60,222 nucleotides of DNA from Nemertoderma westbladi (taxonomy: Eukaryota; Animalia; Xenacoelomorpha): positions 1 to 60,222 of the forward strand of contig JAUCBJ010007917.1 in the NCBI GenBank assembly GCA_032718475.1, read 5' to 3'. Below, piece after piece: positions 4,341 to 43,414 of the stretch (position 1 is its first letter; each line of letters opens with the position of its first letter). Made by a program: the position numbers and the translations under genes. Below the pieces are notes generated by a model, which saw only the letters and a list, made by a program, of their open reading frames with translations, had not been told where the DNA came from and searched no databases.

Positions 4341-4495
4341 CTAACTCTCAAGGATAGTTTTAATCACCATTCAAATATCCCTCGCAAACCAGATTCCCCC
4401 CAGCATCTAAAGTATTCCACTTAAATGCAAAATATATAGAGCTTTAGTTGGATTTGAACCTGTGCTTGTAAACTCTTTTGTGCTCGTATATTGAA

Positions 4496-17767: not shown

Positions 17768-18201
17768 CATGCTGGGCTCTAACTGCTGAGGACACCAAAT
17801 CTCTGGATGGCACATTCACAAGAATGCTACGCCGGGTACATTGTGTCAAGTACAATGCACACATCTCCAACCAGACACTATATAACATTGGAGGTGTCTT
17901 ATTGGTTCCCCCAAGCTTGACACTAGAACAAAATCGCCTCCGCTTTGCAGGACATTGCTTTCGCCGTGAGGACCAGCCAGTGCATAATCTTGTACTTTGG
18001 CAGCCTCATGGAGTGAATAAGCATGGTGGACAGCCCATGACTTTCTTGAGACGCATCTTAAAGGACACTGGCCTTAAAGATGCGGATGATCTAGCAAATG
18101 TCATGGGTGATAGGGAGTTGTGGCGGCGCAATTTTGTTGACAAGCCGGCACAGCATTCTTAAAAATGCAGCTGCAATGCAGCATGCCGATCCTAGTAGTA
18201 G
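17768..18201 (+). mobile_element. 5'-truncated RTE-like LINE insertion with 7-bp TSD TCCTCTC
   Basis: TSD at 17761-17767 and 18202-18208; (TAG)n tail; same protein as ORF 40-651. Confidence 0.9.
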
Positions 18202-23262: not shown

Positions 23263-25507
23263 TGTAAGGGTCCAGTAGTATACCGCTTACCAGATCCTAG
23301 TAACGATGTATCTTACTATGAGACTCTAGTAATGTATACGGGCTTGTACAGTATCTGACAACAAATCCCAGTCCAGGATATCTAAACAAACAGATACAAT
23401 ACACAAACGACTACTGGCGAGGAACAGAGCCTAGTATCTATTCTATGTACGTGAGCGGGTCTAATGCCTACGTACTAGACAAAAGGATACCTGTCCTCTA
23501 ACCGGTGAGGCAGATGTACAGTTACAGTAACAGACCAAACTCACGGGAAAACAATCCCCGCGCAGCGAATCCTAACTATCACTGACAGTCCTAAATACAG
23601 TAACTTGCCGCGGTGTGATTTATATGGTTTATATACGAACTAGGTGGTTAACAGACCTAGTGTAACAATGCTGATTACCCCTGTCTAAATCAGCCTAAAA
23701 GGTCGTGCCTAAATGTAACGATAACTGATCCCCCTGTACGAAATCAGTCTAAAGGGTCAGGCCTAAATGTAACAATAACTGCTGGACAGAAAACAACAGT
23801 TTAATAACGAAAGTGAAATACTCTCTCTTGCCGCAACTAAATCAGATCCTAATTTTACAAATACAGATAATTTCCACCTAAAGTAATGTATAGTGCGCTA
23901 TAGCTAGTAGAACTTTACGGGCAATATGTTTTAGGGCGTGTGTGTGTGGGTGTGTTACAAATAAAACAATTTCGTGTAATTCCTTTACTAGGTTTTAGTG
24001 ATTTTCTGACTAAATGATACCGTGCGCTAGCTACTAAAATAAACTAGTTGCGTTTGTAGAACTTTATACTCACAAATGACGTCAAAGCTCTCTCCTTCCT
24101 ATCCACAACCCAATGGGCAACCACAGTGTTAGTAACTACACCCGTGAACGGCACTAATACCAGATTCTGGTTGTAAGATAAGAAATAGGGGTTAATTGCT
24201 ACCGTACGTTAGCTGATCTGGTATACTAATTTAATTCTAGAACTTTGTTGCTGCGGTAGTTAGCAGCAATACCTATCAGTACGTGGCAAGGCGCGGTAGA
24301 ATATTAATAAACCTCCCTAGGCCAAGCAGTGTGCCGGTAGCAGAAATACTCCTTGCCTGATCAAATAGCTAACTCCAGACAGGGGGGGTACTAATGTACG
24401 TTCTACAAAGCGAACCGGTACCAAACAGTCAGTGCTACGAATCACTAAATTATGGAACATATGCTGTCCGTACCTAATATGTACTCGCGTACTGACGAAT
24501 GGCAATAGTTCGCACCTTTAGGAAGTACAGGTTAACCCAGGGGTTCGTAGGACTGACAAAGGGGGGGGTGTTTCTGTCTGAATATAATTATTTGATCCTA
24601 AATTTGCGGCGTCCAGTACGGCGTCACGCTTACCCTGATCTATAGGTCTTACGGCGGGCAAGGGCGTCGAACAAAGTCTTACCTTCTCACAAAGTGGGCG
24701 CTGCATGGCAAGTTGAGTATTTCGAAGGGGCAAAGGGGGTGCGCGATCAATCCAATGTGGGCGCTAGCGTGTTGTGGACATCTTTTCCCTGCGTTGCTTA
24801 CTGCCTAACAGTCTAGGCTGCCATCTCCCTGATGTTTGGCTGTCCCGAAGTTGGACCAAAAGAAAACATGTTCAGGAATTTGCAGTATATTTACAGTTTT
24901 ACAAAGGATTTATCAAATAAAGTTTCAACAAGAAACCGAAATAAACTAATAAGTAAGAGGTGATAATAACGTAAGAGGTGATAACCGAAGGCAAACCGGC
25001 CTTTTATACTAAAATATCGCACATGGAAACTAAACAGAATTTTCCACAGCTTCACATTTGAGCAATAAAGTGCTTCGTGCCCTATGATTGGCCCAGCTCA
25101 TCGTTCAACGCAGTCCGGCCCTTACACTAATCTGGGACATGGAATCCTAACAGAATTTTCCACTGCCTCACATTTGAGCAATAAGATAATTTATGCCCTA
25201 TGATTGGCCTGGCTCATCATTCGCTACGTTGTACGCTTCTCATTGGCCTACCAATTAGCACCAAACGAAAATAAATGGCCCCAAAATACAAATTTCCCGA
25301 CCGGGATTCGAACTCGTAACCTATGTAATGTAACCAACGCCTTAACCATCTGACCACTACGCCACGAGAGTACCTAAGGGTTTTATGTGTACAAATATGA
25401 ATAGGCATATTACATTACTGTAACTCAATCAAAATACGTCGGATTTTCGAAAGTTTTTACGTTAAAGTTAAACTACAAATGCTATCTTATAGTGAAATAA
25501 TTCATCA
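23263..25507 (-). repeat. 3' LTR of the family 1 element (2245 bp)
   Basis: Direct repeat of 40468-42364; contains TATAAAA (25002-25008, minus strand) and CCAAT boxes (25087, 25203, 25242). Confidence 0.95.
25294..25363 (-). ncRNA. tRNA-like A/B-box cassette in the 3' LTR
   Basis: GGCGTAGTGGTCAGATGGTTAAGGCGTTGG...ACGAGTTCGAATCCCGGTCGGGAA. Confidence 0.6.
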
Positions 25508-26054
25508 CTGCTCCATGAAAACAGTAAGTAAGACTGTTTTCACCAATCGAAATATAAAATATTTACAAACTACTTCTAAATCTACTGGTGGGGCCTAAAA
25601 TATAAAATATAATCACTATCTAATTATTGCATACTTAATATTGCAGATACGGCGTAAATACAATCGATCGTACATACAAATACAAATTTACGAATTAACT
25701 TTAGTGCCTAAAATACAAAAAAGGCTTTCGGTTATCAAGGTAAGCAAATTAAACAAATCAGAACAAATAAATCGAACAAATAAATCAAAACAAATCAAAC
25801 AAATAAATCAAACTCTTTCGATAAATCTTTATATATTGTAAATATACATAATAAACCTTCACCAAATTAAATCAGTCCAAATATAATATAAACATAATGC
25901 GCTAATAACTTCCAATAATGTCCTCCTGACGATCTAATAGTTCGTCCTGCTGGTCTGGATATCTTCTCCTGAGCACCAATTGCTAACGGTAGGCTCGCAA
26001 GCCTTCCTTTCCATATCTCGCTCCTCCAAACCCAACATTCAAACATAAATGTCC

Positions 26055-26123
26055 AATATAAATATCCAAATAAAATATCCAAATATAATATCCAAATATA
26101 ATATCCAAATATAATATCCAAAT
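26055..26123. repeat. ~13-bp tandem repeat (ataatatccaaat) between two copies of the 20-nt motif in the 3' UTR
   Basis: Visible directly in the sequence. Confidence 0.8.
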
Positions 26124-26157
26124 CGGTAGGCTCGCAAGCCTTCCTTCCACTCGCTTC

Positions 26158-29100
26158 CTATTCCTTCGCTGAGCGGGCTCGTCCACGTCCTCTAGTGCGA
26201 TTGGGGGGTGGTCGAGGTCGAACTGGGCTCGGACTTCGGCGTCGAGTCGTCGGTGGTTCCAAAACGCTAGGAAAGGGGACGACGGGAGTTTCGCACATCC
26301 GTCGTGCGCTTAATCCTCTAAATCCTCGTCCGATTCCAACTGTCGGCTTAACATCGGATCGAGTTTCTACAACGCTAGGAGGAAGTCGAAAAGGTAGGAC
26401 CGTTCCGTCCGTTGACACCTCGCTCTCTGACGTCGTTTGAATCCTAATGGGTTCAGTCAAAGCGTATCCTGTCCCTCCGCGTGGTTCTCTAGCAAGGGAA
26501 ACCGTGCCCCGAGTCATCCGGATTTGTGACTTCAACGTCGTCCTCTCGGCGACATTCACTATCTTCTTAATCTCTTGTCCGGCCTTCTGGGCTTTGAGTA
26601 TACGAAATTGCTGATCATCCTGTGGGTGACGCGTCTTCTCTGCTAACGGCGTGGCCTTGAAGCCAGTCTCACGCAAAACGTCGGTCTCGTCCAGAATGCA
26701 CGAGGTTACGCGTTTGTGATAAAATGCCCTCCGGTATGCCCAAGCTATCGAATGCCAGGCTCCTCGATTCCGCTGTTCAACTCGCAGTTTATCGAATTCT
26801 CCGGCGGTAATCTTGTTCACCACAGTTTGAAAGTTCCAAGTATTCTTGTTGTCAGGGTGCACTTGTAAGAAATAGTCCCGCACAACTTTGAATCCACTGT
26901 CCAACGGCAATATATCCAATACCTCCAACAATTCATCGTACTGAGGCATAGCCGATACATATCCTTCCTTTGACATTATGAGAGGGTTTACGGCCCAAAA
27001 TCCCAAATGTGCTCTCATAGGGAAGCGGCGTCGCTGTGTCGATACATGCTCGTCTGCTAGATCCTCCCAATGGTCGAATAATTGTCGAACGATTTTAACT
27101 GACATGTGCTCATAGGGGACGTCGCTAAGTTGACATTCGGATGCCCTATGGCCCTTAATATTACAATAAGTACACTGCGCCACGATACGCCAGCAAGTGT
27201 AGAAGGTGTGCGAACGTTGATCCCCGCACCAGTTGCATACTAAATCCGGTAGAGATATGTGCTTCGCTCCGCACTTCTTTGCGTGATGGCCAGTTGCTCC
27301 ACATCTGCCACAAATAGTGTTGGCAGGATACCAAACTCGCTCATAGATGAGATCTCCGATGGGGCGAGCGCTACCGTCCACGTGATAATTCTCATCATCC
27401 GGGTCAGTCGGTATGTTCGTCTCCGTAGGTTGTACACAAACCATGGCATCGCTTTTCTCTAACTTGCGTATCTCAGTTCGCGTCTTCCTCGGAAGGTTCT
27501 CCTCTATTTCTATGAGTTGCCGTAACGGTTCGTCTATTAGCGCCAACTCGGTCGGATCCACATCGTCATGATGGGCGGTAGGCTCGCGAGCCTTCCAGGA
27601 TCCTTCCGGGCGTTCGAATTCCGCGTGGCGTTCCCCGTCATAGGGTACTAACGTTAACATCGACGGTCTGTCGACTAGACTTCCCGCGTGAGTGAGATAG
27701 ACGTCCCTGAAAACGCTAAGTCCCGCTCGCGTGAAAACTTCGCAGTGCGCATCGGTGTTATAAAAGGGTTGGAGAAATCGTCGGAATACATCAGTATGCG
27801 TCCTTCCTCCATCGTAAAAGGTATGTCCTTCGCCAAGACATAACGGGTGTCGCTTTAAGGTTCTGGATACTACGTCCGCGATGAAACAAACGTTAACCGA
27901 AGATTCTATCGCTAAATAGTATTGCAAGATTATCCGCGGAGGTGAAGTAATCGCCCAATACACGCAACCTCGCCACTTCAACTGTGACTCGAACTCGTTT
28001 ACGCCGGGGGTATCTCCCTCTCCGTATACGTCCGTGTATTTGTTCCTCTTACTCTCCTTGTAATCCCAACTGAACATTAGATATGAGATATAACCCGTTC
28101 CAGTTTTTAGCGTGTTATACTCCCTAAAGTATCCTTGCTCAATAGCCCAAAGCAACAATGGTCTAGTATCCACGTATGGCGTAGGCAATCGGTCCTCTTC
28201 CGTGGGCATCCCTGCAAAGTCGCTAATGAGGTCATCCCGTACACCGGATCCGATCTTGACGATGCTCTTATCCAACACAACGTCTCGCACGGCCTTTGGC
28301 AACATCCTAGCTTCTATGCTACAAGCCAGGTCCATGGATTTAACTATCCGTTTTATCATCGCATGTCTTTGCGTCGTTCCTTCCGGCATAGGCATCTTCC
28401 TATCACTCCTCTGTCGGCTGAAGACATGTAACACGCCATCTGGTGCTCTAATCTGTATAGTCTTTGAAGTGAGGCTTTGCTGATGGCTTCCTCCTTCATT
28501 ATCGTAAAACATATATCCATTCTCTTTCAGAGATCGGCTAGTCACGTCCCAATCGTCGAGTAAATCGTCGGTAGGGTTCCAAATTCTCCCGATCGAGTTT
28601 TCATCATTGAAACTAATAGGTTTACCGGTCCAATTGGTCGCGATATCGGTGTCGGTCTCAAACGTCCCAACTCCGATCCATAATCGAATCGTTTTCGTCA
28701 GATATCCTCGTAAGATACAAGGTGCGATATCCGTCCCCGCGCGATCCACTTCCTTAAAGTCTGTGATATGTGGAGGCACGTTGCGTACGATTTTTTGAAC
28801 TATTACTTTACGCAACTCGGTTGATTCTAACACATCACCGAAGGTGACCGATGGGAGGAAATCCAGGTTCGAGATGATCTCCGGGTGTTCAACTATAGGG
28901 ATCTCGTAAGTTGTCTCCTTCCGGGTCGGTATACTAATAGGAAAACTAGTTGGTCTCGCAACCGGTACTATCGCTCCAGTAGAATGGGGCTGAGGTTCTC
29001 GCGTCATCTCGACATGAGGTATCTGTAGTCTCTGCGACAAACGCTGAGCAAAGGTGATACTATCGAAGAGCCCGGGTGTCATCTCCTTGGGTTCGGTTTG

Positions 29101-29913
29101 ATCGTGGGATATCCAATAGAATGGTAGGCTCGCGAGCCTTCCGCCGAACTCCTCGATCTCGCCTTTCTCGTACGCCTTGTACGCCCTGTAGAGGCTCAAA
29201 GCTTCCCGTTTCTCTTGTGTCGACTTATTAGACTCGTCCACTACCATGCTGTAGACGTCTGGTTCGACTAATTTAGGTTTGTAAATAACGATCTCACCCG
29301 CGTTCGGTCCACTCATTTTAAATGAATGATACGGATTTGTCAAAGGGTATCCGCCTTCTTGGTAACGTAGACTTTGGTGGTATGAACATCGCGCTAATAT
29401 CGGCTCGGGGTTCTCCGAGTTCAACCGCATAGGAATTGCGTTGTCTTGCTCGCGCATACACGCTCCACATTTATAAAACAGTTTGTATACGGAAAACGCG
29501 TCCTTGGTCTCTGGATCCGCTCCTCGAGCGCGTCTATAAAGATGCATTCCTTCAAATTCGTCTCTAGCTGCAGGTAAGGGTTCGTTTACCGTCAAATATT
29601 GCAGCGTATGATACAATCGGCGTATTTCGGTGTCTGGATCCTCACAAATGTCGCTAGCGTCGCATAACGCATCGTAGGGATATAACGCATTGTATTCCGC
29701 GCGTAATTCCTCCGTTCTTTTATTGTATGCGTCCAACCGCTGTCGCGTAACATTCGGGTCCGCCTTGGATTTAGCGAGCTTGGCCGTACTCCTAGCCATA
29801 CTCTCCACTCCAAACACACTAAAGTTTTTAGCTCCATAACGATTGAATGGCGCCTGGTGCTCTTGTTCTTGCGTAAACCCTTGACGTAACTCTTTATACA
29901 TCTTCTCCGCCAT
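26158..29913 (-). CDS. ORF3, 1251 aa: WRN/EXD-like DEDDy 3'-5' exonuclease-fold domain, three CCHC zinc knuckles and a basic RG-rich tail
   Basis: TIQIRAPDGVLHVF..MLPKAVRDVVLDKSIVKIGSGVRDD..YVDTRPL..YW..QYYLAIES follows the WRN-exonuclease motif order. Knuckles: CGRCGATGHHAKKC, CNWCGDQRSHTFYTC, CTYCNIKGHRASEC. Confidence 0.8.
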   Translation of the reverse strand: MAEKMYKELRQGFTQEQEHQAPFNRYGAKNFSVFGVESMARSTAKLAKSKADPNVTRQRLDAYNKRTEELRAEYNALYPYDALCDASDICEDPDTEIRRLYHTLQYLTVNEPLPAARDEFEGMHLYRRARGADPETKDAFSVYKLFYKCGACMREQDNAIPMRLNSENPEPILARCSYHQSLRYQEGGYPLTNPYHSFKMSGPNAGEIVIYKPKLVEPDVYSMVVDESNKSTQEKREALSLYRAYKAYEKGEIEEFGGRLASLPFYWISHDQTEPKEMTPGLFDSITFAQRLSQRLQIPHVEMTREPQPHSTGAIVPVARPTSFPISIPTRKETTYEIPIVEHPEIISNLDFLPSVTFGDVLESTELRKVIVQKIVRNVPPHITDFKEVDRAGTDIAPCILRGYLTKTIRLWIGVGTFETDTDIATNWTGKPISFNDENSIGRIWNPTDDLLDDWDVTSRSLKENGYMFYDNEGGSHQQSLTSKTIQIRAPDGVLHVFSRQRSDRKMPMPEGTTQRHAMIKRIVKSMDLACSIEARMLPKAVRDVVLDKSIVKIGSGVRDDLISDFAGMPTEEDRLPTPYVDTRPLLLWAIEQGYFREYNTLKTGTGYISYLMFSWDYKESKRNKYTDVYGEGDTPGVNEFESQLKWRGCVYWAITSPPRIILQYYLAIESSVNVCFIADVVSRTLKRHPLCLGEGHTFYDGGRTHTDVFRRFLQPFYNTDAHCEVFTRAGLSVFRDVYLTHAGSLVDRPSMLTLVPYDGERHAEFERPEGSWKAREPTAHHDDVDPTELALIDEPLRQLIEIEENLPRKTRTEIRKLEKSDAMVCVQPTETNIPTDPDDENYHVDGSARPIGDLIYERVWYPANTICGRCGATGHHAKKCGAKHISLPDLVCNWCGDQRSHTFYTCWRIVAQCTYCNIKGHRASECQLSDVPYEHMSVKIVRQLFDHWEDLADEHVSTQRRRFPMRAHLGFWAVNPLIMSKEGYVSAMPQYDELLEVLDILPLDSGFKVVRDYFLQVHPDNKNTWNFQTVVNKITAGEFDKLRVEQRNRGAWHSIAWAYRRAFYHKRVTSCILDETDVLRETGFKATPLAEKTRHPQDDQQFRILKAQKAGQEIKKIVNVAERTTLKSQIRMTRGTVSLAREPRGGTGYALTEPIRIQTTSESEVSTDGTVLPFRLPPSVVETRSDVKPTVGIGRGFRGLSARRMCETPVVPFPSVLEPPTTRRRSPSPVRPRPPPNRTRGRGRARSAKE

Positions 29914-29953
29914 CGTATACGAATATATGCGGTTACATATCGTTACGTTTCTA

Positions 29954-30150
29954 CTAGATGAAGCACAAAATAGAGGTTAGACGTGAGGTGACTTAGAGTT
30001 TGTCGGCCTTTGGCTCAACTCTGCTCTAAACCCCAACCCATTTGCCTAATGACTTCGGGTTCGCGTGATTTCGCACTGGCTCCTAATCCAAAAAATGTGC
30101 CGATAAAAAACGAATTCCGGGTAAACTAGCCGCGAGTCTAAAATACTCAC
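29954..30150 (-). other. Predicted 197-nt intron in the ORF3 5' UTR
   Basis: Donor AAG|GTGAGT at 30150; branch point CTAAC, pyrimidine tract and CTAG| acceptor at 29954. Both signals are conserved in the old copy (~43081-43279). Confidence 0.6.
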
Positions 30151-30646
30151 CTTTTAATTTCCCAAACTACGTTTCCCAAGAAAAATAGTGCAGTCGAGAA
30201 ATAATTGGTCTAAATAATAGTAGACACGACTACGTAGAACAAGGCCGATTTTCTTTTTTCCAAAAAAAATTTATCGGTAGGCTCGCAAGCCTTCCATCCG
30301 CTCTTGTCCTCCCCAATTTTAATTTTATCTAGCTGTATTCTAGAATTTGCTTTCACTGGAGAATCGCTTTTCTTAAATTTAAATCCAAATAAATGGATTT
30401 GTCTAATAAATTTTGAAAATTGTCTCACTTGTGGGTTCCAAGTGGAATTCCATTCCTACTGTACACACAATCCCGCTCCTATGTGATACATAAGGGTACT
30501 ACCCTCCATGTTCACATATAAAGACAATGGAATTCCACCGCTGTCTCTATCTACAGTGAAGAGGATTACAAATGCACGTACAGTAATACAAATACAAATA
30601 ACTAAAATACAGTAGGTCTATGTGGCGGCCAACAAAGGTCCCACAT

Positions 30647-33600
30647 CTATTTACTAATATTGGGTGGAGATTTGTAGTCTCCTGTCTCGTTTCTAGTCTC
30701 CTCAAGGAGTACGAGACGTTGTACAGGCCTATCTACGGTACTTCCGTCGATAGTCTTTACAGTAACTGTCCTCACTACACCAGATGTAGGGTGCGTGGTC
30801 AAAATGACTCCAGTTAGCCAAAACCGTCTTTTCAGATTAGCTTCAGCCAATAAAACATGGTCACCACGTCTTAAACATCGGGTATTTAGATACCAAGAAG
30901 TTCTGGTCGAAATAGAGGGCAAATAATATTTCTGCCATATTTCCCAGAATTTATTTGCAAGCAATTGAGTGATTTTCCAAGCCTTGTTGCTGTATCCGTC
31001 ACTATCAACGGGTACCGAAATGGGCAACAATGTCGTCGGCGCCTGCATAAGCAGGTGCGCTGGTGTCAAGGCAAACTGTACGTCGTTATTGTCTGGGATC
31101 AAAGCGATCGGTCTAGTATTTAAGATTGCTTCGATTTCTATTAGTAACATCGTTAGTTGGTCGTCTGTCAAGATGTGTTGCGTCGGTACGACTTTAGCCA
31201 TAGCTGTCTTTATTGAGCCAATCAGCCTTTCCCAGACGCCGCCTCTCCACGGACTGTCTGGAGTATTGAAAAACCAAACAATACGGTGAGGACGTAGTTC
31301 CTCGGAAATCTGGTTTGTGGTCCAATTTTCTCAAAGCTCTGGTTATTTCGTTCCGTGCACCCACAAAGTTTGTCCCTTGGTCGCAGTATATGGATTTGAC
31401 CAATCCACGTCTAGCGATAAATCGCCGTAAGGCTAGGATAAAGGCATTGGTGGTCAAGTCTGTTACTCGCTCTATATGGACAGCTCTGCTGGCCATGCAA
31501 GTGAAGATCAATCCCCAACGTTTTACCTGTACCCTTCCGCGTTTCGCGATTATGGGTCCAAAACAGTCTATCCCTGTCTCAATGAAAGGGGGTCTAAACG
31601 CCTGTAATCTAGCTAGCGGTAGTTCACTCATTTCTTGGTGTCCTATCCTCGCGTGCACCTTCTTACAAATAATACAGTTCTGTGTTACCGAACTTAGTGC
31701 CTTACTAGGTCTAATCAGTACAAACCTCGAGCGTAAGTGTGATAGACAGTGGTGTCTACCTACGTGTTTGAGTTGTACATGTGCGTCCAGTATCATAGCG
31801 CGCTGTAACTCATGGTGTTGCGGTATGATGATAGGATACCTAAAGTCAAGTGCAAAGTCGATGTTTTGGAGTCTGGACTTGTGACAAAGTAAGCCCCAGT
31901 AAATAATCGGACTCCAACTCAAAATCGGTGAAGACTTAATCTGTTTACCTTGTTTGATCGCTGTGAACTCTCGTGCGAAATATCGCAATTGATAATGTCT
32001 AATGATATCAACTTCACAGTGGTCGATTTCCTTTAAGGTAAGTCTTCTAGGAAAGTCGCGTTTGCCTCTGGCATATTGTCTCAATCGTTTGAGCCATGCT
32101 AACTTGCGGCACGCGTCAGTCCATGATCTAGTTAGGTTCACTATCCTGTCAACGTAAGTGTTGGTGACGTCATCGGGTAAGGTGTAGTCGTAGTGTGGAT
32201 ACTTGTCTGGACTTGGTAGGCCAACGGGCCTTCCGGTAGGTTTGTCTGAGTCCCCAAGTACGTCAATCTCTACGGTCTTACCTTTGCCGTCCGCACCTAA
32301 TGTGTCGACTGGCAGTAATGATTTCAACTCTATAGTGTCAGTGTGTTCCTGTGAGCCTGTAAGCTTCCTAACCTTAGTCACACGTTTACCTGTAGGTAAG
32401 TCAAGTACCTTCTTCGAGCGGAGTGTAATCCCTGTGGCCACACCTTTGTCGTCCAAAGAAGTCAAATTCGGTAAGTCTCTAAAAGTCCGCTCCAATGGGT
32501 CTTCGAATGGAATGTCTAGTAGACAGTCTGGTGAAGCATCTGGTGAACAGTCTGGTGAGACGTCTGGTGAGACATAGCGCGGAACATCCGGCGAAATGTC
32601 CTGTCGTCGGTCCCAAAGTCTGTCTAGCGTAACTTCTGTCAGAAAGTCTGGTTCAAAGTCTGGTGAACAGTCTGTCGAGATGTCTGGTGGAAAGTCTGGT
32701 GAGACGTCCGGTAGACATTCTGTCGAGAGTTCCATCAAACAATCTGGCAAACAATCCGGAGAACAATCTGGTGTCGCTTCTGGTGAATAATCTGGCGAGT
32801 AATCTGGTGAACAATCCGGCGAAACGTCTGGTGAAATCTCCCGCGGAACATCCGGCGAAGGATTCGTACAAGCGTCTGGTCGAGTGTCTGGCGAGACGTC
32901 TGGCGTAATGTCAGGTCTGGCGTCCAGGTCATCAGATTTCGTCCGTCCTTTTTTCCTCTTGACCTTGGCGTTGGCTTTCGCTTTAGACTTGACAACCTTG
33001 TCGAGTTTTATCTTGGCACCCTCTGGTATGGTGTTGGTTGTCGCGTCGAATAACGGTGGCCATTCGTCTGATGGTCGCTGTAGGAAATCGGGTCCTCTAA
33101 ACCAAAAGGATTTATTGTCCGGTTTACAAAAGTCAAGTGGTTGCATCCCCCGTGACGCGATGTCAGCTGGGTTCAGCTTCCCTGGACAGTGACGCCAATC
33201 TTGTTTGAGCGACCGGTCTAATATTTCAGCCTGTCTGTTGGCTACGAAAGTCTTGAACTCAAATGCTTCGTTGTTTATGTACCAAAGTACCAACGTCGCA
33301 TCCGTCCAATATGTGACCTTCAAGTTAGCCTCCAGCTCGCATTTAAATAGACTGACAATATCGGTGGATATCGTCCCGGCTTGCAGCTCCCCACGAGGTA
33401 CAGTCATATACTTCAATGGCATTGTTCTAGCCCTTGAAGTAACGAGAGATACATCGTAGCTGTCCGATGTCACTTGTCGTCTAAGGTACAAAGTAACCCC
33501 CAATCCATCCTTGCTAGCGTCACTAAAGCTGTGAAGCTCTAAATCGGCAGGAAAGGTGGTTTGCAAAGGAAAGTATACCCTTGGTATGGTATAGTCTTGT

Positions 33601-36344
33601 AGGAACGTCAGTTGGGCTTCCCAGTCCCTCCATCGCTCAGCTAACTTTTCTGGGATGGGATCGTCCCATTCCAGTCCGGCTTGCCAAATGCTGCGGAGTA
33701 TGATCCTAGCATGTAGGATCACTGGACTAATGAAACACAATGGGTCATACAATCGACTCATGGTCGATAAGCAAGTCCTCTTAGTGAGAGGTCTAGTCTG
33801 GTCGTTGGACCTTACACGTACCCTAAAATTGTCGGTGTTAGGGTCCCAACTAAGTCCTAATACTTTGGTCGTCGGCAGAGGTTCTAGGTCTAAGTCCAAG
33901 TCACCTCCACTGCGATCCATCGGGTCAAATGAGTTCACCAGTTCGGGTTCGTTGGAAGCGAACTTCGTCAGGTGAAATCCGCCCTCAGCGAGACAATCCT
34001 GGAGTTGGTGTGCTACGGTTGTAGCGCGCTCCAAGGTGTCACAACTCTTGAGGCCGTCATCCACGTAGAAGTCTCGTTCCACGGTCCGAACTACTTCTGG
34101 GTCAAATTGGTCTCGTCTGTCCAATGCTGTCTGCTTTAATGCGTACATGGTGCAGTTGGGGCTGTCCCTGGCTCCAAATACTCTTACCTGCATTTGGTAA
34201 GTTTCTGGCGGAAGTTGTAAGTTTCCGTCCAGATACCAAAGAAACCTCAAACTGTCCCTGTCCCGCTCCAAAGCCTTAACCTGGTGAAACATGGCCTCTA
34301 CGTCACAGGTGAAAGCCACTTTGCGTTGTCTAAAACGCATTAGGACTCCCATGAGGTAATTATTCATATTCGGCCCGTCCATCAGTTCTCTATTCATAAA
34401 CATCCCTTGGTAAAGCGCAGCGCAGTCGTTGACTACACGCACCTTGCCAGGTTTGTCCGGGTGTCGAACAAAATGATGTGGCAGGTAATATGTCTGGTCT
34501 GTGGTTACCTCGGGATTTAACATCCTAATGGCATATCCCTTTTGGAGATACGTCTGAAGTTGTGCATTGTATTGCATATGGGCCATCTCGTCTCGCAACA
34601 ATCGCTGCCTTATTGATTTGAGTCGCCTCAAAGCAAGCGGGTAATTGTTAACGAGTTTAGGTTGTCCATCGCGCCACAACATACCAACCTCATAGTGGCC
34701 ATTCGTGGTCTGGCGAATGGTATCTCTCATAATATTTAATGACCGTTTTTCCTGTTCTGACATAGCGGTCTCGTAACTACCGGGTTCTGCTGAGTCCTGT
34801 TCCAACCATTGTATGGTCCGTTCAGTCAGCAGTCGGTCAAGCGCTGCTTGCACTGCGCCATGGTCCTCGTCCACGTCTTCGTCCGCTGCGGTGGCTAGTG
34901 TCAATGTGTCTGGTAGGCTCGCAAGCCTTCCGGTGTCACTAGTCGGCGTCGAATCGTCGTGCGGCGGTTTGACAACCTTTTGATCTGTCGGTAGGCTCGC
35001 AAGCCTTCCAAGATCAACGACCGGTGTCGAAGCCTGGTGGGTGGGGTCAATGACCTTCGGATTTTTCGGTAGGCTCGCAAGCCTTCCAAAATCCTCGTTC
35101 ATCGAGTCATCCACGGCAACAACCCTTAGGTCTTCAGTAGTCAATACAACCTGGTCTACTGCAAGTAGTTGTAAGTCAGAGGTCCGTATGGTCGTGTCCA
35201 GATCGGTTAAGTCAGTATCGGTGGCGTCTGCGTTAGTGACGCAAGTCTGTCGTAGTGCCGTCCGTACAATTGGACCACAGGAGTGTGAAGGAGAATTATC
35301 TATCATGTTAGTCAATAAACTACACGTACTCAAAACGTCGTCCTCCTGGTCACTTACCTCTAGTGAACGTATTGGTGCTCTAGTATACCAACCTATGGGA
35401 GTTCTACATGCGTAGGGGTTGCCCGCTGTAATAACAGATGGGCGTGTCTCCCATACCTGATGTAAGTTAAACTGGTCTGTCCCAATTAACATCGCAATAG
35501 AACGATAATTAACAGGACATTCTGGTATTCCAAGGTGTCGGAAATACTTACGATCTTCCGGTGATTGCTCTGGCACAGGGCCGAGCAAGTTACTAAAGTC
35601 CTTCGTAGCTGCAAAGGTCAAATTTCTTACCGGAAGTAATGAGCGCTCCTCCTTGCTGTGTTCCGCTTTGGAAAGAAGAGTGTCTAAAGTTAGTTTTACT
35701 CTCGTCACAGGAATCGCTCTCTTACCATGCATGCTGCTTACAGTATACTGAGCAGTCTTACCTTGACTCATGTCCGTAACTACGTCGGCTACTTGTTCGT
35801 CGACATAACTATGCGATGACGCAGAGTCTAAGATGGCGTATATACGCTTGCTCCCTCGGGTTCCGGTAATCTTTATAGGAATCACGCTAAACCCTTTCAA
35901 TTGGTTCTGTGTGAGGAGCGTTATCGAAGGCTGTTCCTCACCTGCATGCACGTAAAAAGTGTCGTCTTCCTCCTCGTCCTCGTCCGATGATCCTGATTGA
36001 TCCATACAGTCGGTATAAAAGGTACGGATCTCACGCGGCGCACGCTCCTTATAAAGCGCATCGCATCTAGCCGCTTTATCTGGATGCTCTCGTCGAAAGC
36101 GTCTGGTCGGAGTATGACTGGTTGTGTGAAGCAACGCGTCATGGTTACGTCCACACAAAGAACATGTATCGTCGCTCGGGCAATCCTTCCGGACGTGTCC
36201 TGGCTTCATACATCTCCAACAGGAATCTAGAGATCGGATTTGGAGTCTCCTCTCCTCGATCCCTAACTCTTTAAAAGCGCGACATCCACGTAGTTTATGT
36301 CCGTTTCTGCGTTTCTGCCGTTCTGCTCGCAGTATGAGCATCAC
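30647..36344 (-). pseudogene. pol: BEL/Pao pol (zinc knuckles, aspartic protease, RT, RNase H, integrase) with a frameshift in integrase at ~31315
   Basis: CWRCMKPGHVRKDC; ILDSAS; FTCDVEAMFHQV; FYVDD; HSFSDAS; HHCC; DCFG/CDQG. The alternate frame carries NTPDSPWRGGVWERLIG and the integrase C-terminus (30647-31201). Confidence 0.92.
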
Positions 36345-39300
36345 ACAAAGTCCGCCGGCAACTGTTGTCGTGGCTGCGTGGTGCCGATAGGCGTCAGAAC
36401 TTTAGAAGTCTCAGTAGGGGTGGCGTAAGTAACGGCTTTCGCGTTCGTCGGAAGTGGTTTTGTCCGAGTCGGCGCAGAAACAGCTATCCCTTCCGCCGCG
36501 ATATGGTGATCGGTATAGTTCGATCGAGTCTCTATCACGGCCTCCCGTGAAATAAGTTGATAGACATCGGTGAGTTTTAATAACCCTCCGGCCTCTTCAC
36601 GCTGGTACTCGATGTGTCGCCATTCTCGTCGTAGTCGATGGTGAAGTCGACCGATTATTCGAATGAGAACCGTCGCTGCGTTAGCGTACTCGAGTTGTCC
36701 AATGGACCGTAAAGTCCCTATAGCGTTCTTTATTTCGTCCGCGAGTCGTAAAAGGTCGATCGGTCTCGAAATGTTGCCTCCTCTGCAGAGGTCTTCAATA
36801 ATGGATTTAGCCATGGCGACGTTACCGCCGTAAATCGAATACAAACGGTCGTACGCCAATTCAAAGGCATCTGGAACACCGATAAAGGTTTCCGCTAATC
36901 GTTTCGGCTCACCAGACAGAACTTGGAGCAAGTAATTAAACTTCTCCGTCGAGGTGAAAGCACACTTAGAGATCTGGGACTCTACGTAGTCTACCAGTGT
37001 GCGCCAGTGTTTCGCGTTGCCAGAGAACTTCGGCGGTTGCTGTGCCGGTAATCCGTGTCTAGCCGCGAATTTCGCAATCTCGCTAACCAAATCCAACTGT
37101 CCGCGTCCCTGTTCGGTGGCGTCGTCCAGTCGTTCCCTTCCGCGCGTTGTTTGTCGGTAGGAATTATTAATGGGATCTTCTTCTCGATGTGTCGGAGTCC
37201 GTCTAGTCTCCTGTTCTCTCCTCGGTGGTCGATGTTGTCTAGGTTGTTCCAACTCCACGCTGGTTCGTGATCGATCCGACGGTTGCGCTTCGAGTCGCTC
37301 TTCTATCTGAGCTAGTCGGTCCGCTACAGGTCGCATTATTTCGGCGAGTCTGTTGGTGCTGATCGCTTCCGCTGGTTGCAACGTGGTTTTCTGTTGGGGT
37401 GTTTCTCGAGGTGGATCGTCGATGTAGGGATTCGTCGACCTCTCCTCTCGTTTGTAATCTTCCGCCGCTCCAGTACGGAATATTTCCCGTTCCGTCGACT
37501 CCGAGTCGCTAGATGAGTCGCTGTTGTCCGGATAAGGTGGCTGGCGGGTTCGTGTCCGGCGTATTATTCTAGATTTCGTCCGTTGCGGTCCGGAATCTAT
37601 GGCTCTCCGTTGTTCGGTAGGCTCGCAAGCCTTCCACGAAGTCGTAGGTCTCGCTATATGTTGTCCGATCCCATGGGTACTACCCACATCCATCCTCCTC
37701 CGTAGTTCGGTAGGCTCGCAAGCCTTCCACGAAGTCGTAGGTTGCGTCGAACATTGTGTCAACGGTCGAGTGAAATAGTCGGGTTTCGTAGTCGGTCTGT
37801 AAATAACTGGATTTGCACAGCACGTCACAGGTTTAACTTGTAATGGTTTACTCACCTGTTTAATGGTCATAAACGCAGGTTCCTCTCTTCCTACAAGTAG
37901 ACTACGACTTACTGTAGGTGGACTAGTTGCGTTACCTGCTAAAATCGGCGATGAAGTCGCCCTAGGTTGCGGTATTTCTGTCACAACAAACCTGTTGCCT
38001 TGCGTCGAATGCACAGGCGTTATTTCCTTAGGTTTCGTAACGAAGACCGGTTTTATCGGAGTCGTGGGTTTGAGCATAGGAATAACTTGGGGAAAACGTT
38101 TACAGTAATCCTCGACGAACTCCTCTCCTCGATCTATCGCTCCCACACTTCCTTCCTCGATCCGCTTCTGTATTCCGCGATATCGAGCTTCCATACGATC
38201 CAGGGCAGACAAGTCGTGTCCAGTTCGCGATCTTATAGATCTATCTCTCGCGTCGAGTTCGAGGTCCGCTTGCGCGTTTGCTGTCTCGCGCGATCTACGA
38301 TTCAATTCGAACTGTAGTTGCATTTCCCTTTCGCGTCGATTCGCTACTTGTTGTTGTGCCGCTAACTCCGCTTCCTGTATAGCTAAGCGTGCGTTTATTT
38401 GTCGTGCCTCCAACTTAGCGCGAGCGTCGGACGCTGCCTTCTTCCGTGCTAACTCAGCTGCGTTTACCGCCGCAACTCGTACTAGCTCGTCGGCTGCCGC
38501 CGCCGCGGCTGCTTCTTGCGCCAAGTTTTCCTCCAATCTGCGCATTTCCGAAGCTTCGAATTCGGCTTGCGCCTTGAGTTGCGCAATTCTTGCCTCGTCC
38601 TCTCTATGTTGTTTCTCTCCTTCGATGGCGATCTGTGCCATCTGGTGTTGCGCTTCTTCCTCGGCGACTTGTTGTCGGCGTGCAACCTCCTGTTGTTGTC
38701 GAGTAATTCCAGACGCTGTTCTACTAACGTCGCCAACGTCGCTCCGTACGCTAACGAACGATCTATCCAGTGGTGGATGTTGGTAGGCTCGCGAGCCTTC
38801 CGTAGTGAGAACTTCCGTCGTCCCTCGCGGTTCGACTTCCGGTTCGTCGATCGGTACGCCGCATCTACGAAGAAAATTGGTCAGCGTTTCCAACCTTCCG
38901 TCCAGGCAGTAGAGTTCTTCTTCCTCTTCGGGTTGTAACAACGCGTCCGAAACTGACTCACCTAGCAGTTGGTCAAACTGCTCCTGTTGAGCCAATCTTA
39001 TTACTGACTTAAACTGGATAATGCTTTCTCTCGCACTTACTAATTTATCTACTATCTTTACCTGAGTAAAGTTGTCGCCACGCAACTCTGCAAGTTCGTG
39101 TAAACCTTTAAGTTTATCTACGGAGGCATGTACCCTACTTTCTATCCTTACCTGTAAGGTGTAGAACTCGTATCTCGACATCGGGGCGGTTAACTCGCGT
39201 AAAACGCGAAAACCTTCTCCGAGGTTCCGAGTAATCTGGGCCATGTGTCCTCCTATACTTCTAATAACGTTCTCCTGGCTTCCAGTCGAACTTACCATGT

Positions 39301-39526
39301 CCGGTTCCCGTGATCTAGTCTGCGGGACGGTAAGGAAATCTTCGATTCTGCCGTCGCCACGCGTTGCGGCTTCCGGTATTTCCGTTCGGGGTACCGGCGA
39401 CGCAAGCGGTGTGACATCGGTGGAATCTCGGGTTCTCCTTCTCGGTTCGTCTACTGTCGATCTGTCCGGGTCGCACGAGTCATAGTCGGTAGGTGGGTAT
39501 CTCGTCGAATGGGGTGTGTCACTCAT
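36341..39526 (-). CDS. gag: BEL/Pao gag (coiled coil plus DUF1759-like capsid region)
   Basis: PPKFSGNAKHW..EKFNYLLQVLSGEPK..AYDRL..YG matches the BEL gag core. Confidence 0.85.
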   Translation of the reverse strand: MSDTPHSTRYPPTDYDSCDPDRSTVDEPRRRTRDSTDVTPLASPVPRTEIPEAATRGDGRIEDFLTVPQTRSREPDMVSSTGSQENVIRSIGGHMAQITRNLGEGFRVLRELTAPMSRYEFYTLQVRIESRVHASVDKLKGLHELAELRGDNFTQVKIVDKLVSARESIIQFKSVIRLAQQEQFDQLLGESVSDALLQPEEEEELYCLDGRLETLTNFLRRCGVPIDEPEVEPRGTTEVLTTEGSRAYQHPPLDRSFVSVRSDVGDVSRTASGITRQQQEVARRQQVAEEEAQHQMAQIAIEGEKQHREDEARIAQLKAQAEFEASEMRRLEENLAQEAAAAAAADELVRVAAVNAAELARKKAASDARAKLEARQINARLAIQEAELAAQQQVANRREREMQLQFELNRRSRETANAQADLELDARDRSIRSRTGHDLSALDRMEARYRGIQKRIEEGSVGAIDRGEEFVEDYCKRFPQVIPMLKPTTPIKPVFVTKPKEITPVHSTQGNRFVVTEIPQPRATSSPILAGNATSPPTVSRSLLVGREEPAFMTIKQVSKPLQVKPVTCCANPVIYRPTTKPDYFTRPLTQCSTQPTTSWKACEPTELRRRMDVGSTHGIGQHIARPTTSWKACEPTEQRRAIDSGPQRTKSRIIRRTRTRQPPYPDNSDSSSDSESTEREIFRTGAAEDYKREERSTNPYIDDPPRETPQQKTTLQPAEAISTNRLAEIMRPVADRLAQIEERLEAQPSDRSRTSVELEQPRQHRPPRREQETRRTPTHREEDPINNSYRQTTRGRERLDDATEQGRGQLDLVSEIAKFAARHGLPAQQPPKFSGNAKHWRTLVDYVESQISKCAFTSTEKFNYLLQVLSGEPKRLAETFIGVPDAFELAYDRLYSIYGGNVAMAKSIIEDLCRGGNISRPIDLLRLADEIKNAIGTLRSIGQLEYANAATVLIRIIGRLHHRLRREWRHIEYQREEAGGLLKLTDVYQLISREAVIETRSNYTDHHIAAEGIAVSAPTRTKPLPTNAKAVTYATPTETSKVLTPIGTTQPRQQLPADFV

Positions 39527-40467
39527 GTCTTATTATATACGTCAAGTACGGGTAATAAAATGTCAAAGTGTCTGAATGTTGAAGTGTCAAACTTACCTCG
39601 GTATATATAGTATATATATACCCTAACCGGTACAAATAAATCAACAAGTCAGAATGTCGAAATGTCAAAATGTCGAAATGTACAAATGTCAAACTTACCT
39701 TGATATATATATATATCATATATATACCCTAACCGGTACAAATAAACTAACAAGGTATAAAATAAGTAGTAATCTAGCCTACCGGCTAAATTTGTACGAA
39801 TAAATGAGATAACGATATACGTTAACAAAATATAGATCAACAAGTACGAATAATAGGCTAAACAGCAACGTCTAACGGGAAAATAAGTACCAACAACACT
39901 ACAAATAGACAGTGAAACCCACAAATTTTGAGTACTACTGTGCTTTCTTAAGTTTGAACGACGCGAGTCGTAAAACTTACGTTCCTTTGATCTTCCAGTC
40001 GTACAAATTCCCAAATACAAACCGGACGTGGGTCTTTCCGTTTTTCGGCGGCGCGGACGAATTTATTATCTCCCAAACTTTGCGAAAAGCGGTCTAATCC
40101 TCGAAGCGGTCCAGAAATGAGTCCTTGAGTCCTGAAAAGGTCGAAGGTGAGAGTTTTACTTCTACGCTTACGAAAAATCTTCCTAGGTACCGATACAAAT
40201 TGGTCTTTAAACCCTATGTACCTTTTCAAGTACCGAAAAGTAACACCGCACACACACGGCGTAAAACAAAGTGCTACAAACTAACTGTTAGCTAGTCAAA
40301 TATTAAATACGAAAGTACTAGCTACCCTAAAAGCCTACTGAAGCAGGGGACGTTCTAAATTACTAAATTCGCTAACCTTAAATTTTAAATATCTCCTACT
40401 TTCAATAGCTAGCAGATCTAAACAATACTATACACTAATTTCAGAATTTGTATAATATACTTCCTAC

Positions 40468-42364
40468 TGTAAGGGTCCAGTAGTATACCGCTTACCAGAT
40501 CCTAGTAACGATGTATCTTACTATGAGACTCTAGTAATGTATACGGGCTTGTACAGTATCTGACAACAAATCCCAGTCCAGGATATCTAAACAAACAGAT
40601 ACAATACACAAACGACTACTGGCGAGGAACAGAGCCTAGTATCTATTCTATGTACGTGAGCGGGTCTAATGCCTACGTACTAGACAAAAGGATACCTGTC
40701 CTCTAACCGGTGAGGCAGATGTACAGTTACAGTAACGGACCAAACTCACGGGAAAACAATCCCCGCGCAGCGAATCCTAACTATCACTGACAGTCCTAAA
40801 TACAGTAACTTGCCGCGGTGTGATTTATATGGTTTATATACGAACTAGGTGGTTAACAGACCTAGTGTAACAATGCTGATTACCCCTGTCTAAATCAGCC
40901 TAAAAGGTCGTGCCTAAATGTAACGATAACTGATCCCCCTGTACGAAATCAGTCTAAAGGGTCAGGCCTAAATGTAACAATAACTGCTGGACAGAAAACA
41001 ACAGTTTAATATCGAAAGTGAAATACTCTCTCTTGCCGCAACTAATTCAGATCCTAATTTTACAAATACAGATAATTTCCACCTAAAGTAATGTATAGTG
41101 CGCTATAGCTAGTAGAACTTTACGGGCAATATGTTTTAGGGCGTGTGTCTGTGGGTGTGTTACAAATAAAACAATTTCGTGTAATTCCTTTACTAGGTTT
41201 TAGTGATTTTCTGACTAAATGATACCGTGCGCTAGCTACTAAAATAAACTAGTCGCGTTTGTAGAACTTTATACTCACAAATGACGTCAAAGCTCTCTCC
41301 TTCCTATCCACAACCCAATGGGCAACCACAGTGTTAGTAACTACACCCGTGATCGGCACTAATACCAGATTCTGGTTGTAAGATAAGAAATAGGGGTTAA
41401 TTGCTACCGTACGTTAGCTGATCTGGTATACTAATTTAATTCTAGAACTTTGTTGCTGCGGTAGTTAGCAGCAATACCTATCAGTACGTGGCAAGGCGCG
41501 GTAGGATATTAATAAACCTCCCTAGGCCAAGCAGTGTGCCGGTAGCAGAAATACTCCTTGCCTGATCAAATAGCTAACTCCAGACAGGGGGGGGGGGGGG
41601 TACTAATGTACGTTCTACAAAGCGAACCGGTACCAAACAGTCAGTGCTACGAATCACTAAATTATGGAACATATGCTGTCCGTACCTAATATGTACTCGC
41701 GTACTGACGAATGGCAATAGTTCGCACCTTTAGGAAGTACAGGTTAACCCAGGGGTTCGTAGGACTGACAAAGGGGGGGGGGTGTTTCTGTCTGAATATA
41801 ATTATTTGATCCTAAATTTGCGGCGTCCAGTACGGCGTCACGCTTACCCTGATCTATAGGTCTTACGGCGGGCAAGGGCGTCGAACAAAGTCTTACCTTC
41901 TCACAAAGCGGGCGCTGCATGGCAAGTTGAGTATTTCGAAGGGGCAAAGGGGGTGCGCGATCAATCCAATGTGGGCGCTAGCGTGTTGTGGACATCTTTT
42001 CCCTGCGTTGCTTACTGCCTAACAGTCTAGGCTGCCATCTCCCTGATGTTTGGCTGTCCCAAAGTTGGACCAAAAGAAAACATGTTCAGGAATTTGCAGT
42101 ATATTTACAGTTTTACAAAGGATTTATCAAATAAAGTTTCAAATACAAATTTCCCGACCGGGATTCGAACTCGTAACCTATGTAATGTAACCAACGCCTT
42201 AACCATCTGACCACTACGCCACAAGAGTACCTAAGGGTTTTATGTGTACAAATATGAATAGGCATATTACATTACTGTAACTCAATCAAAATACGTCGGA
42301 TTTTCGAAAGTTTTTACGTTAAAGTTAAACTACAAATGCTATCTTATAGTGAAATAATTCATCA
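40468..42364 (-). repeat. 5' LTR of the family 1 element (1897 bp; ~355-bp deletion of the core promoter)
   Basis: Near-identical to the 3' LTR except that the segment matching ~24929-25285 is missing (junction near 42140). Confidence 0.95.
42151..42220 (-). ncRNA. tRNA-like A/B-box cassette in the 5' LTR
   Basis: Same sequence as 25294-25363. Confidence 0.6.
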
Positions 42365-43414
42365 ATATCCAATAAAATGGTAGGCTCGCAAGCCGAACTG
42401 CCGAACTCCTCGATCTCGCCTTTCTCGTACGCTTTGTACGCCCTATAGAGGCTCAAAGATTCCCTTTTCTCTTGTGTCGACTTATTAGACTCGTCCACTA
42501 CCATACTGTAGACGTCTGGTTCGACTAATTTGGGTTCATAAATAACAATCTCGCACGCGTTCGGTCCACTCATCTTAAACGAATGGTACGGATTCGTCAA
42601 AGGGTATCCGCCTTCTTGGTAACGCAGACTTTGGTGGTATGAACATCGCGCTAATATCGGCTCGGGGTTCTCCGGGTTCAAGCGCATAGGAGTCGCGTGG
42701 TCTTGCTCACGCATACATCCTCCACATTTATAGAACAGTTTATATAAATGGAGAACGCTTCCTTAGTTTCCGGATCCGCTCCTCGAGCGCGTCTATAAAG
42801 ATCATATCTCTGTGTCTCGGGTCCTCGCAAACGTCGCTGGCGTCGCATAACGCATAGTAGGGGTACAACGCTTTGAACTCCGCGCGTAACTCCTCTGCTC
42901 TTTTGTTATAAGCATCCAATCGCTGTCGCGTAACGTTTGGATCCGCCTTGGACTTAGCGAGCTTGGCTGTACTCCTAGCCATACTCTCCACTCCAAACAC
43001 GTTAAAGTTTTGGCCCCATATCGGTTTAACGGCGCCTGGTGCTCCTATTCCTGTGTGAATCCCTGTATATAGTGTTTCTACTAGAGGAAGCACAAACAGA
43101 GGTTAGATGTAAGGAGACTTAGAGTTTTGTTGGCTTTTGGCTCAACTTTGCTCTAAAACCCCTACCCATTTGCTTAATGACTTCGGGTTTCGCGTGATTT
43201 CGCACTGGCTCCTAATCCAAAAAAAAATGTGCTAATAAAAAACGAATTCCGGGTAAAATAAACGGTCTAAAATACTCACCTTTTAATTTCCCAAACTACT
43301 ATCCCAAAGAAAATAGTGCAGTCGAGAATTAATTTGGTCTAAATAATAGTAGACACGACTACGTAGAACAAGGCCGATTTTCTTTTCCAAAAAAAATTTA
43401 TCTGTAGGCTTGCA
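42365..43414 (-). pseudogene. Old family 1 copy, continued: ORF3 N-terminus and its upstream intron
   Basis: ORFs 42325-42714 and 42740-43093 match the ORF3 N-terminal region, with frameshifts. Confidence 0.85.

Follow-up and report, generated by a model that had tools for sequence, protein, structure and literature searches.

The window analysed here is a 60,222-nt stretch of contig JAUCBJ010007917.1 (positions 1 to 60,222; assembly GCA_032718475.1) from Nemertoderma westbladi. At 23263-42364 on the minus strand, it carries a 19.1-kb element, which is a recent BEL/Pao long terminal repeat (LTR) retrotransposon, and one 20-nt motif occurs twelve times along this element. The parts of the element, called the young copy below, are as follows.

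23263..42364, minus strand: the whole young copy, a 19,102-nt BEL/Pao LTR retrotransposon; TG...CA ends; flanked by the 5-nt target duplication ATATC (23258-23262 and 42365-42369)
40468..42364, minus strand: 5′ LTR, 1,897 nt, motif-free, with about 355 nt of the 3′ LTR missing
23263..25503, minus strand: 3′ LTR, 2,241 nt, with 9 substitutions relative to the 5′ LTR in 1,666 aligned positions
36341..39529, minus strand: gag frame (DUF1759), with a long, lineage-specific N-terminal part; out of frame with pol in the young copy
31194..36401, minus strand: pol frame, with zinc knuckle, protease region, reverse transcriptase, Peptidase_A17/RNase H and integrase zinc domain, and two lineage-specific linker expansions
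30647..31330, minus strand: integrase tail (DUF5641), in a different frame in the young copy
26158..29913, minus strand: ORF3, open, 1,251 aa counted from the first Met

Pfam searches gave the BEL/Pao set, with DUF1759 in Gag (E 3.6e-10) and Peptidase_A17 in Pol (E 3.9e-39). The domain order (reverse transcriptase, RNase H, integrase, DUF5641) is that of BEL/Pao, and the matches to the reverse transcriptase and the integrase zinc domain lay under the Pfam cut-offs. The 120 listed relatives of Pol share 32-46% identity with it and all 120 possess PF05380 (Peptidase_A17); many of the named ones come from marine invertebrates. A homology search of viral contigs gave no Pol relatives, and two weak, 33-residue matches from prokaryote genomes were discounted. 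The family is large and diverse: 24,530 contigs of one public run aligned to the element, 2,468 of them less than 90% alike. The young copy is disrupted at the gag/pol junction and within the integrase. Because its two LTRs differ at so few positions, its insertion is recent.

A segment of about 355 nt (24929-25283) occurs in the 3′ LTR and in the LTR of an older copy described below but not in the 5′ LTR; apart from it, the LTRs are 99.5% alike. At 32503-32871, an expansion of 12-nt and 24-nt repeats gives rise to SPD-x repeats in the linker between RNase H and integrase of Pol, which the relatives do not possess. Inspection by eye of the region behind the 5′ LTR (40420-40467) revealed no canonical TGG-type tRNA primer site, and inspection by eye together with a purine scan revealed no purine tract adjoining the 3′ LTR (25504-25560). 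Neither is evident even though the family has a high copy number.

Distribution of the motif

The twelve copies in the young copy are listed on the strand of the element and in its 5′ to 3′ order.

38782..38801, minus strand: motif copy 1 (C form), gag, read as EGSRAY
37709..37728, minus strand: motif copy 2, gag, WKACEPT
37616..37635, minus strand: motif copy 3, gag, WKACEPT; 93-nt sister of copy 2
35068..35087, minus strand: motif copy 4, protease-reverse transcriptase linker, GRLASLP
34990..35009, minus strand: motif copy 5, protease-reverse transcriptase linker, GRLASLP; 78-nt unit
34912..34931, minus strand: motif copy 6, protease-reverse transcriptase linker, GRLASLP; 78-nt unit
32215..32234, minus strand: motif copy 7 (variant), RNase H-integrase linker, GRPVGLP; compensatory pair, different loop
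30276..30295, minus strand: motif copy 8, non-coding, interval between integrase and ORF3
29123..29142, minus strand: motif copy 9 (C form), ORF3, GRLASLP
27577..27596, minus strand: motif copy 10 (C form), ORF3, WKAREPT; between the exonuclease-like domain and the knuckles
26125..26144, minus strand: motif copy 11, 3′ untranslated region (UTR)
25988..26007, minus strand: motif copy 12, 3′ UTR

Thus, the young copy contains eleven exact copies and one variant, all in a single orientation. The preliminary description of this DNA, made from the sequence alone, had listed the eleven positions on the plus strand, and all of them proved exact. It had also described the twelfth copy (32215) as carrying a compensatory pair change, which is so; the loop of this copy differs too. 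Eleven of the twelve copies are alike at 19 of 20 positions; the common variation lies at the first loop position of the sense RNA, which is either C or U. Nine copies are coding and all three frames are used. The reading frames agree with those of the preliminary description: five copies lie in the GRLASLP phase (GRLASLP in four, GRPVGLP in one), three are WKAxEPT (WKACEPT in two, WKAREPT in one) and one is EGSRAY; the other three are non-coding.

A scan of both strands of the whole window gave twelve exact matches on the plus strand (the eleven of the young copy and one at 23063) and none on the minus strand. With 4-5 mismatches allowed, 32215 and 42379 were the only additions, and 100 dinucleotide shuffles gave no match even at 3 mismatches. 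A covariance model trained on the twelve young copies was run unfiltered across the whole window. The twelve young copies and 23063 scored 33-46 bits, 42379 scored 16.8 and the next, unrelated place scored 8.7; the model revealed no further copy in the window. Both the scan and the model confirm that the LTRs are free of the motif, as had been claimed. The second BEL/Pao family of the window (44096-50972) contains no copy by exact scan or covariance model, and GGTAGGC repeats at 45868-46008 within it were rejected as the motif because they are a local 60-nt tandem repeat. Across the window, Rfam gave no match at gathering score; a snoRNA match (E 0.19) located away from the motifs was taken as chance. 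In metagenome contigs, the exact motif was found as two single matches, both amid bacterial-looking genes and taken as chance. A relaxed pattern matched 66 loci in viral contigs, with one match apiece and none clustered. Likenesses to bacterial REP sequences and to the histone stem-loop were set aside because stem length and loop differ and Rfam gave no match.

Constraint on the copies, their placement and their turnover

The motif is invariant, its flanks are mostly unrelated and family copies show few variants in it. Therefore, the constraint is placed at the level of nucleic acid and not of peptide, as the preliminary description had proposed; reading frames, variation in motif and flanks, and codon choice all support this. 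In the three 78-nt units of the protease-reverse transcriptase linker, the motif is identical at 20 of 20 positions and the flanks agree at 19-30 of 58. Across all twelve copies, the 30-nt flanks are 15-43% alike, the exceptions being two tandem pairs (52% and 63%). Given the peptide and the codon usage of the element, the probability of the motif is 1.5e-4 to 1.3e-3 per copy for the eight exact coding copies. The peptides themselves do not recur among the 120 listed Pol relatives beyond one GRLASL in relative P0047, which sits in a conserved helix and was rejected as a motif peptide.

Variation within the family was measured with public contigs aligned to 34850-35130 (four runs queried, three with cover, from two samples; cut-off, a share of at least 2%). 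In total, 32 differences were listed at 31 places. Over the span that these places cover, variation affected 1 of 60 positions in the motif and 30 of 158 in the flanks (Fisher p = 2.9e-4); for third codon positions, the counts were 0 of 18 and 11 of 55.

The young copy is nested in an older relative, and four internal stretches of the two are 85-94% identical. The two parts of the older copy are as follows.

20492..23257, minus strand: older related copy, left part, with LTR, 3′ UTR with one intact motif (23063) and the end of ORF3
42370..43414, minus strand: older related copy, right part, with the start of ORF3 and intergenic sequence; damaged motif sites 42379 and 43403

The preliminary description had placed motif copies in the older element at 23063, 42379 and 43403. 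The first is intact. The other two are damaged orthologues of 29123 and 30276: 42379 has 3 mismatches and has lost the 5′ arm of the sense stem, and of 43403 only a decayed trace is left at the orthologous position, which shows up in an alignment alone. The young copy inserted 10 nt from a damaged motif site of the old copy (42365-42398). Motif copies, together with the 15 nt on either side of them, account for about 3% of the element. This single event raises the question whether the motif guided the nested insertion.

Copies occur in the N-terminal part of Gag, in two linkers of Pol (protease-reverse transcriptase and RNase H-integrase), in the intergenic region, at two sites within ORF3 and in the 3′ UTR. 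All seven gag/pol copies sit where at most 5 of the 120 listed relatives have an aligned residue, and such relative-poor stretches make up 27% of pol. The largest gap between copies is 2.7 kb, which gives p = 0.01 when tandem sisters are merged (8 clusters). The copies appear to arise in part by local tandem duplication in units of 78, 93 and 137 nt, in which the spacers drift and the motif is held.

This mode of origin bears on a neutral explanation, in which a small palindrome spread by template switching or conversion and was tolerated in linkers. Some copies are indeed tandem sisters, and the number of units differs among family copies: contig joints at 34850-35130 lose or gain one 78-nt unit, and the 3′ UTR carries one motif in the old copy against two in the young one. 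However, the spacers of tandem units are only 33-52% alike around an identical motif, and the motif carries fewer variants than its surroundings. Moreover, motif sites persist at all three comparable places of the old copy, which has diverged by 6-15%, and the motif decays after a copy dies. A neutral by-product is therefore disfavoured, and we consider it very improbable.

We also considered a role of the motifs in reverse transcription, with internal priming or template transfer taking place at them in a very long genome. Even spacing and strand specificity are compatible with such a role, a TGG-type primer site and an adjoining purine tract were not seen, and both purine runs of at least 10 nt in the last 700 nt run into motif copies. 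However, these runs are about 500 nt away from the LTR, the motif does not consist of purines alone and, as regards self-priming, no complement of the post-LTR region in the element exceeds 9 nt. We think this role very unlikely.

Predicted hairpin and its candidate binders

In the sense RNA, the motif is predicted to form a hairpin with a 7-pair stem, an A-A mismatch and a 4-nt loop. The preliminary description had proposed such a sense-strand hairpin. Folding in context speaks for it, since the inner pairs of the sense stem reach a predicted probability above 0.8 in nine of the twelve copies when 80 nt of context are included. So does copy 7 (32215), in which both sides of one pair are changed in a compensatory manner. 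Both common loops match the YNMG consensus as defined in PMC5633025. Any two of the eleven common copies are also predicted to form an 18-pair duplex, and both common forms (C and U) keep this pairing. The predicted gain of the sense duplex over two hairpins is 15.5-19.7 kcal/mol. In the antisense strand, the C/U variation breaks pairs, and the predicted gain of the common form is 7.7 kcal/mol. These energies lend support to the earlier suggestion of a dimerisation signal.

The bases flanking the stem are U-G in six copies, C-A in four and A-G in two, and never a Watson-Crick pair (p = 0.005, or 0.03 when tandem sisters are merged). U-G and C-A are isosteric wobbles. Two copying lineages would yield the same pattern. 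The read table contains a single motif variant, and one contig shows another change; both give G-U in the sense strand and A-C in the antisense strand; because these are two events, one of them at a CpG, this sign is weak. Taken together, several weak signs favour the sense RNA over DNA as the acting molecule.

The rival view takes the motif for a binding site on double-stranded DNA, recognised by a dimeric protein (ORF3 itself or a factor of the host) that keeps the element unmethylated or transcribed. The preliminary description had drawn an analogy with VANC proteins, which bind motifs in VANDAL transposons. The near-palindrome offers two similar half-sites. The CpG observed/expected ratio is 1.17 in the young element and 0.60 over the window's first 20 kb, and CpG positions varied at 0 of 6 in the motif core against 15 of 33 in the flanks (p = 0.04). 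However, the second BEL family, which is motif-free, also has a ratio of 0.97. According to excerpts of PMC5735166, VANC motifs likewise show a single orientation and spread in tandem repeats; they are 8-9 nt long and mainly non-coding, whereas the motif here is 20 nt long and coding in nine of twelve copies. The analogy therefore fits in orientation and tandem spread and fails in motif length and coding position. Furthermore, the recognisable domains of ORF3 are of the RNA or single-strand type, and neither the matched double change of copy 7 nor the G-U-keeping variants are expected of a DNA site. We regard a DNA site as unlikely.

ORF3 is a plausible binder, as had been suggested, in that it is likely to consist of a DEDDy 3′-5′ exonuclease and three zinc knuckles; this assignment, with one distant homologue, is new to the present analysis. 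Its candidate domains are as follows.

27856..28542, minus strand: candidate DEDDy 3′-5′ exonuclease domain of ORF3, with D471, E473, D561, Y666 and E670 (numbered from the first Met)
27133..27312, minus strand: ORF3 knuckles, two CCHC and one variant CX2CX5HX4C

Library scans gave no Pfam, NCBIfam, PHROG or PDB match to ORF3. Two word-index searches and a search of phage records gave no homologue, and ORF3 was unmatched among the proteins of the 120 listed Pol relatives. In contrast to these, a full HMMER search of 1.84 billion representatives gave one homologue, P0121 (558 aa, E 3e-5), which aligns with ORF3 across the middle domain and the knuckles and so has the same architecture. A two-sequence alignment of ORF3 and P0121 gave no homologue in viral contigs. 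The DEDDy-like domain with zinc knuckles would thus define a small protein family, of which P0121, located on a 7.5-kb contig, is a distant member.

In the Atlas, the middle region of ORF3 was nearest to PF01612 in 24 and then 29 of 30 clusters (score 0.90-0.92); the shared features numbered 146-161, under the 170 typical of true PF01612 members. We built a profile from 25 bacterial PF01612 domains of 30 loci, five being excluded as partial or weak. Against this profile, 7 of 500 shuffles were equal to or better than ORF3 alone, and none of 500 for P0121. With the two-sequence profile of ORF3 and P0121, hhalign gave a probability of 53% and an E value of 1.4e-4 over 134 columns. D471/E473 (ExoI) and D561 (ExoII) align with the profile. 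Y666-x3-E670 aligns only with Y-x3-D of P0121, so that the last Asp of ExoIII would be Glu. The idea of a catalytically dead nuclease was dropped when P0121 revealed the alignment of the ExoI and ExoIII residues, and the exonuclease may be active. Two AlphaFold2 models were of low confidence (mean pLDDT 31 and 30). A transmembrane stretch was not found in ORF3, so ORF3 is not env-like.

These features suggest a second RNA-based model, in which ORF3 docks on the hairpins and marks its own transcript for protection, export or transport, or directs its nuclease at nearby small silencing RNAs. Both ORF3 and the motif are specific to this family among the 120 listed relatives (ORF3 unmatched, motif peptides absent save the one chance GRLASL). 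ORF3 would bring a candidate DEDDy domain, with acidic residues at three Exo motifs, together with three knuckles. Copies also lie over ORF3 and the 3′ UTR, which suits a signal on all transcripts of the element. There are precedents: export of Cer1 RNA requires CERV (excerpts of PMC10309623), and the exonuclease domain of Egalitarian (Egl) touches localisation stem-loops, including that of the I factor (PMC13186709). However, the protein P0121 is without any motif peptide, the targets of Egl are longer, bent helices with no common sequence (PMC13186709), and a self-complementary core is unnecessary for docking. On balance, marking by ORF3 seems to us rather unlikely, though it is the nearest competitor of the packaging or dimerisation reading given below and is not mutually exclusive with it.

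Alternatively, the hairpin might recruit a host RNA-binding protein for export, localisation or protection from decay, like the CTE or the signal of the I factor. Strict conservation and the fixed mismatch would suit a slowly evolving host binder, and elements that bind host factors are known in retroviruses (PMC10309623) and the I factor (PMC13186709). However, the motif matches no Rfam family and there is no other copy within the 60-kb window. We judge recruitment of a host protein distinctly unlikely.

The explanation that we tentatively favour, at somewhat less than an even chance, is that the motifs act in the sense RNA as dispersed packaging or dimerisation hairpins, to which one of the element's own knuckle proteins would bind. 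In this explanation, the twelve motifs would be cis-acting signals maintained at the nucleotide level along the element. Each would fold into a hairpin in the sense RNA, and any two of the eleven common copies could zip into the 18-pair duplex. A zinc-knuckle protein of the element, either the Gag nucleocapsid or ORF3, would bind the hairpins and thereby cross-link the RNA, which is about twice as long as usual, and condense it. Packaging or dimerisation would explain the self-complementarity, the tolerated variant, the even coverage and the roughly doubled size of the element. The analysis shows directly where the motif occurs, its orientation and frames, its invariance beside diverged flanks and its placement in lineage-specific linkers. 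The hairpin and the duplex are predictions; that RNA is the acting molecule, which protein binds it and that packaging is the purpose are inferred.

Several observations weigh against this explanation. As regards the fold, the 80-nt context disfavours the sense hairpin in 37616 and 30276, and the outer pairs are weak in 29123. The isolated hairpin is predicted at -7.6 kcal/mol on both strands alike, so energy alone does not decide the strand. Covariation is seen in only one of the seven pairs, and the twelfth copy (32215), with a loop outside YNMG, would gain just 3-5.5 kcal/mol by duplexing. The near-total sequence identity exceeds what structure alone needs, and the signals of RNA viruses are degenerate. 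The single orientation is also seen for VANC DNA motifs (excerpts of PMC5735166). Five copies lie 3′ of the integrase, four of them in or behind ORF3, and would therefore also be present on any subgenomic ORF3 mRNA; these copies would not discriminate in favour of genomic RNA. Packaging in ordinary BEL/Pao elements does without the motif, as the second family of the window, with no copies, illustrates. As regards the statistics, evenness of spacing has p = 0.14 when the twelve copies are treated as independent. The variant test has p = 0.063 once the threshold is raised to 4%, two of the three copies in it are depth-inflated by contigs from other sites, and contigs omit rare variants, which weakens the test.

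We can combine the packaging hairpins and ORF3 into a bolder proposal, which we hold to be doubtful. In a BEL/Pao lineage, every tolerant linker would have acquired the same exact, self-complementary hairpin of 20 nt, with gaps of no more than 2.7 kb. ORF3, as a DEDDy-knuckle protein, would read the hairpin and so restrict condensation, protection or processing to the element's own RNA. Such a system would correspond, at the RNA level, to VANC/VANDAL and would allow a retrotransposon to grow to twice its size.

Neighbouring repeats and comparison with known systems

The window contains further repeats. The second, broken BEL/Pao family lies on the plus strand (44096-50972, with a remnant at 5733-6868) and includes three 60-nt tandem units at 45868-46008. 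Directly behind it, at 51398-55645, there are about ten tandem units of 415-418 nt with low GC. A satellite in two blocks (4495-5660 and 8290-8920) consists of 22-nt and 30-nt units, which are based on a short palindrome. A reverse-transcriptase fragment (RVT_1, E 3.5e-23) at 16571-17815 lies between inverted repeats at 15652-16088 and 17765-18201.

RNA selection, dimerisation and condensation are known for few LTR retrotransposons, and none was found for BEL/Pao in the searched literature. The same literature, whose scope leaves aside supplements and most subscription journals, gave no report of an LTR element with an exact hairpin repeated through coding sequence. Four literal motif strings occurred in no paper of this literature, and a prior mention in a repeat library or supplement is possible. 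Here, a cis-signal is openly displayed: a 20-mer occurs twelve times, at a cost in amino-acid choice and deletion risk, beside a family-specific nuclease-like protein. It may help to explain how giant retroelements outgrow the limit on size that usually applies; excerpts of PMC6431247 name packaging capacity as such a limit. The question can be tested directly with short oligonucleotides and single domains. Moreover, a simple screen suggests itself for other families of transposable elements, namely a search for exact dispersed repeats within coding sequence.

Like other BEL/Pao elements, the young copy possesses a DUF1759 Gag, Peptidase_A17, integrase with DUF5641, TG...CA LTRs and a 5-nt target duplication. 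It differs from them in its size of 19 kb, the extra 1,251-aa ORF3, the motif-bearing linker expansions, and in that no canonical primer site or purine tract was seen. The dimer initiation hairpins of retroviruses, such as the HIV-1 DIS and the GACG loops of MLV, are self-complementary and convert to an intermolecular duplex; there are one to few per genome, in the 5′ leader. Self-complementarity is common to both systems, whereas the motif here is present in twelve copies through all genes.

Dispersed packaging signals are established for RNA viruses, according to excerpts of PMC6281560. As in the single-stranded RNA viruses and the hepatitis B pregenome described there, many stem-loops lie along the genomic RNA within coding sequence. 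The viral signals have a short shared recognition feature and variable sequence, whereas the copies here are near-identical and self-complementary. The excerpts report no dispersed packaging signals for a retrotransposon. VANC/VANDAL, as described in excerpts of PMC5735166, also combines a family-specific accessory gene with a motif in many same-orientation copies, partly spread in tandem, and units are gained and lost here too. However, VANDAL is a DNA transposon with an 8-9-nt, non-palindromic, mainly non-coding motif; the element here is a retroelement and its motif is a 20-nt near-palindrome, mostly in coding sequence. With CERV of Cer1 and with retroviral Rev/RRE (excerpts of PMC10309623), the element shares an LTR-element accessory protein proposed to act on its own RNA. 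In these excerpts, no dispersed repeated hairpin is described for CERV, and its domains are unrelated to those of ORF3. The five copies located 3′ of the integrase bear on a further hallmark of Rev/RRE-type export, namely confinement of the signal to sequence that splicing removes from the accessory mRNA. In gene order, the element resembles the Vesta and Juno LTR elements of bdelloid rotifers and Terminons, in which, according to excerpts of PMC5408684 and PMC6431247, a DEDDy-type exonuclease is the third ORF after pol; the word "hairpin" does not appear in PMC5408684. The rotifer DEDDy ORF3s belong to the Juno/Vesta clades and Athena, whereas the element here is BEL/Pao, its candidate domain is fused to CCHC knuckles and its protein is far longer.

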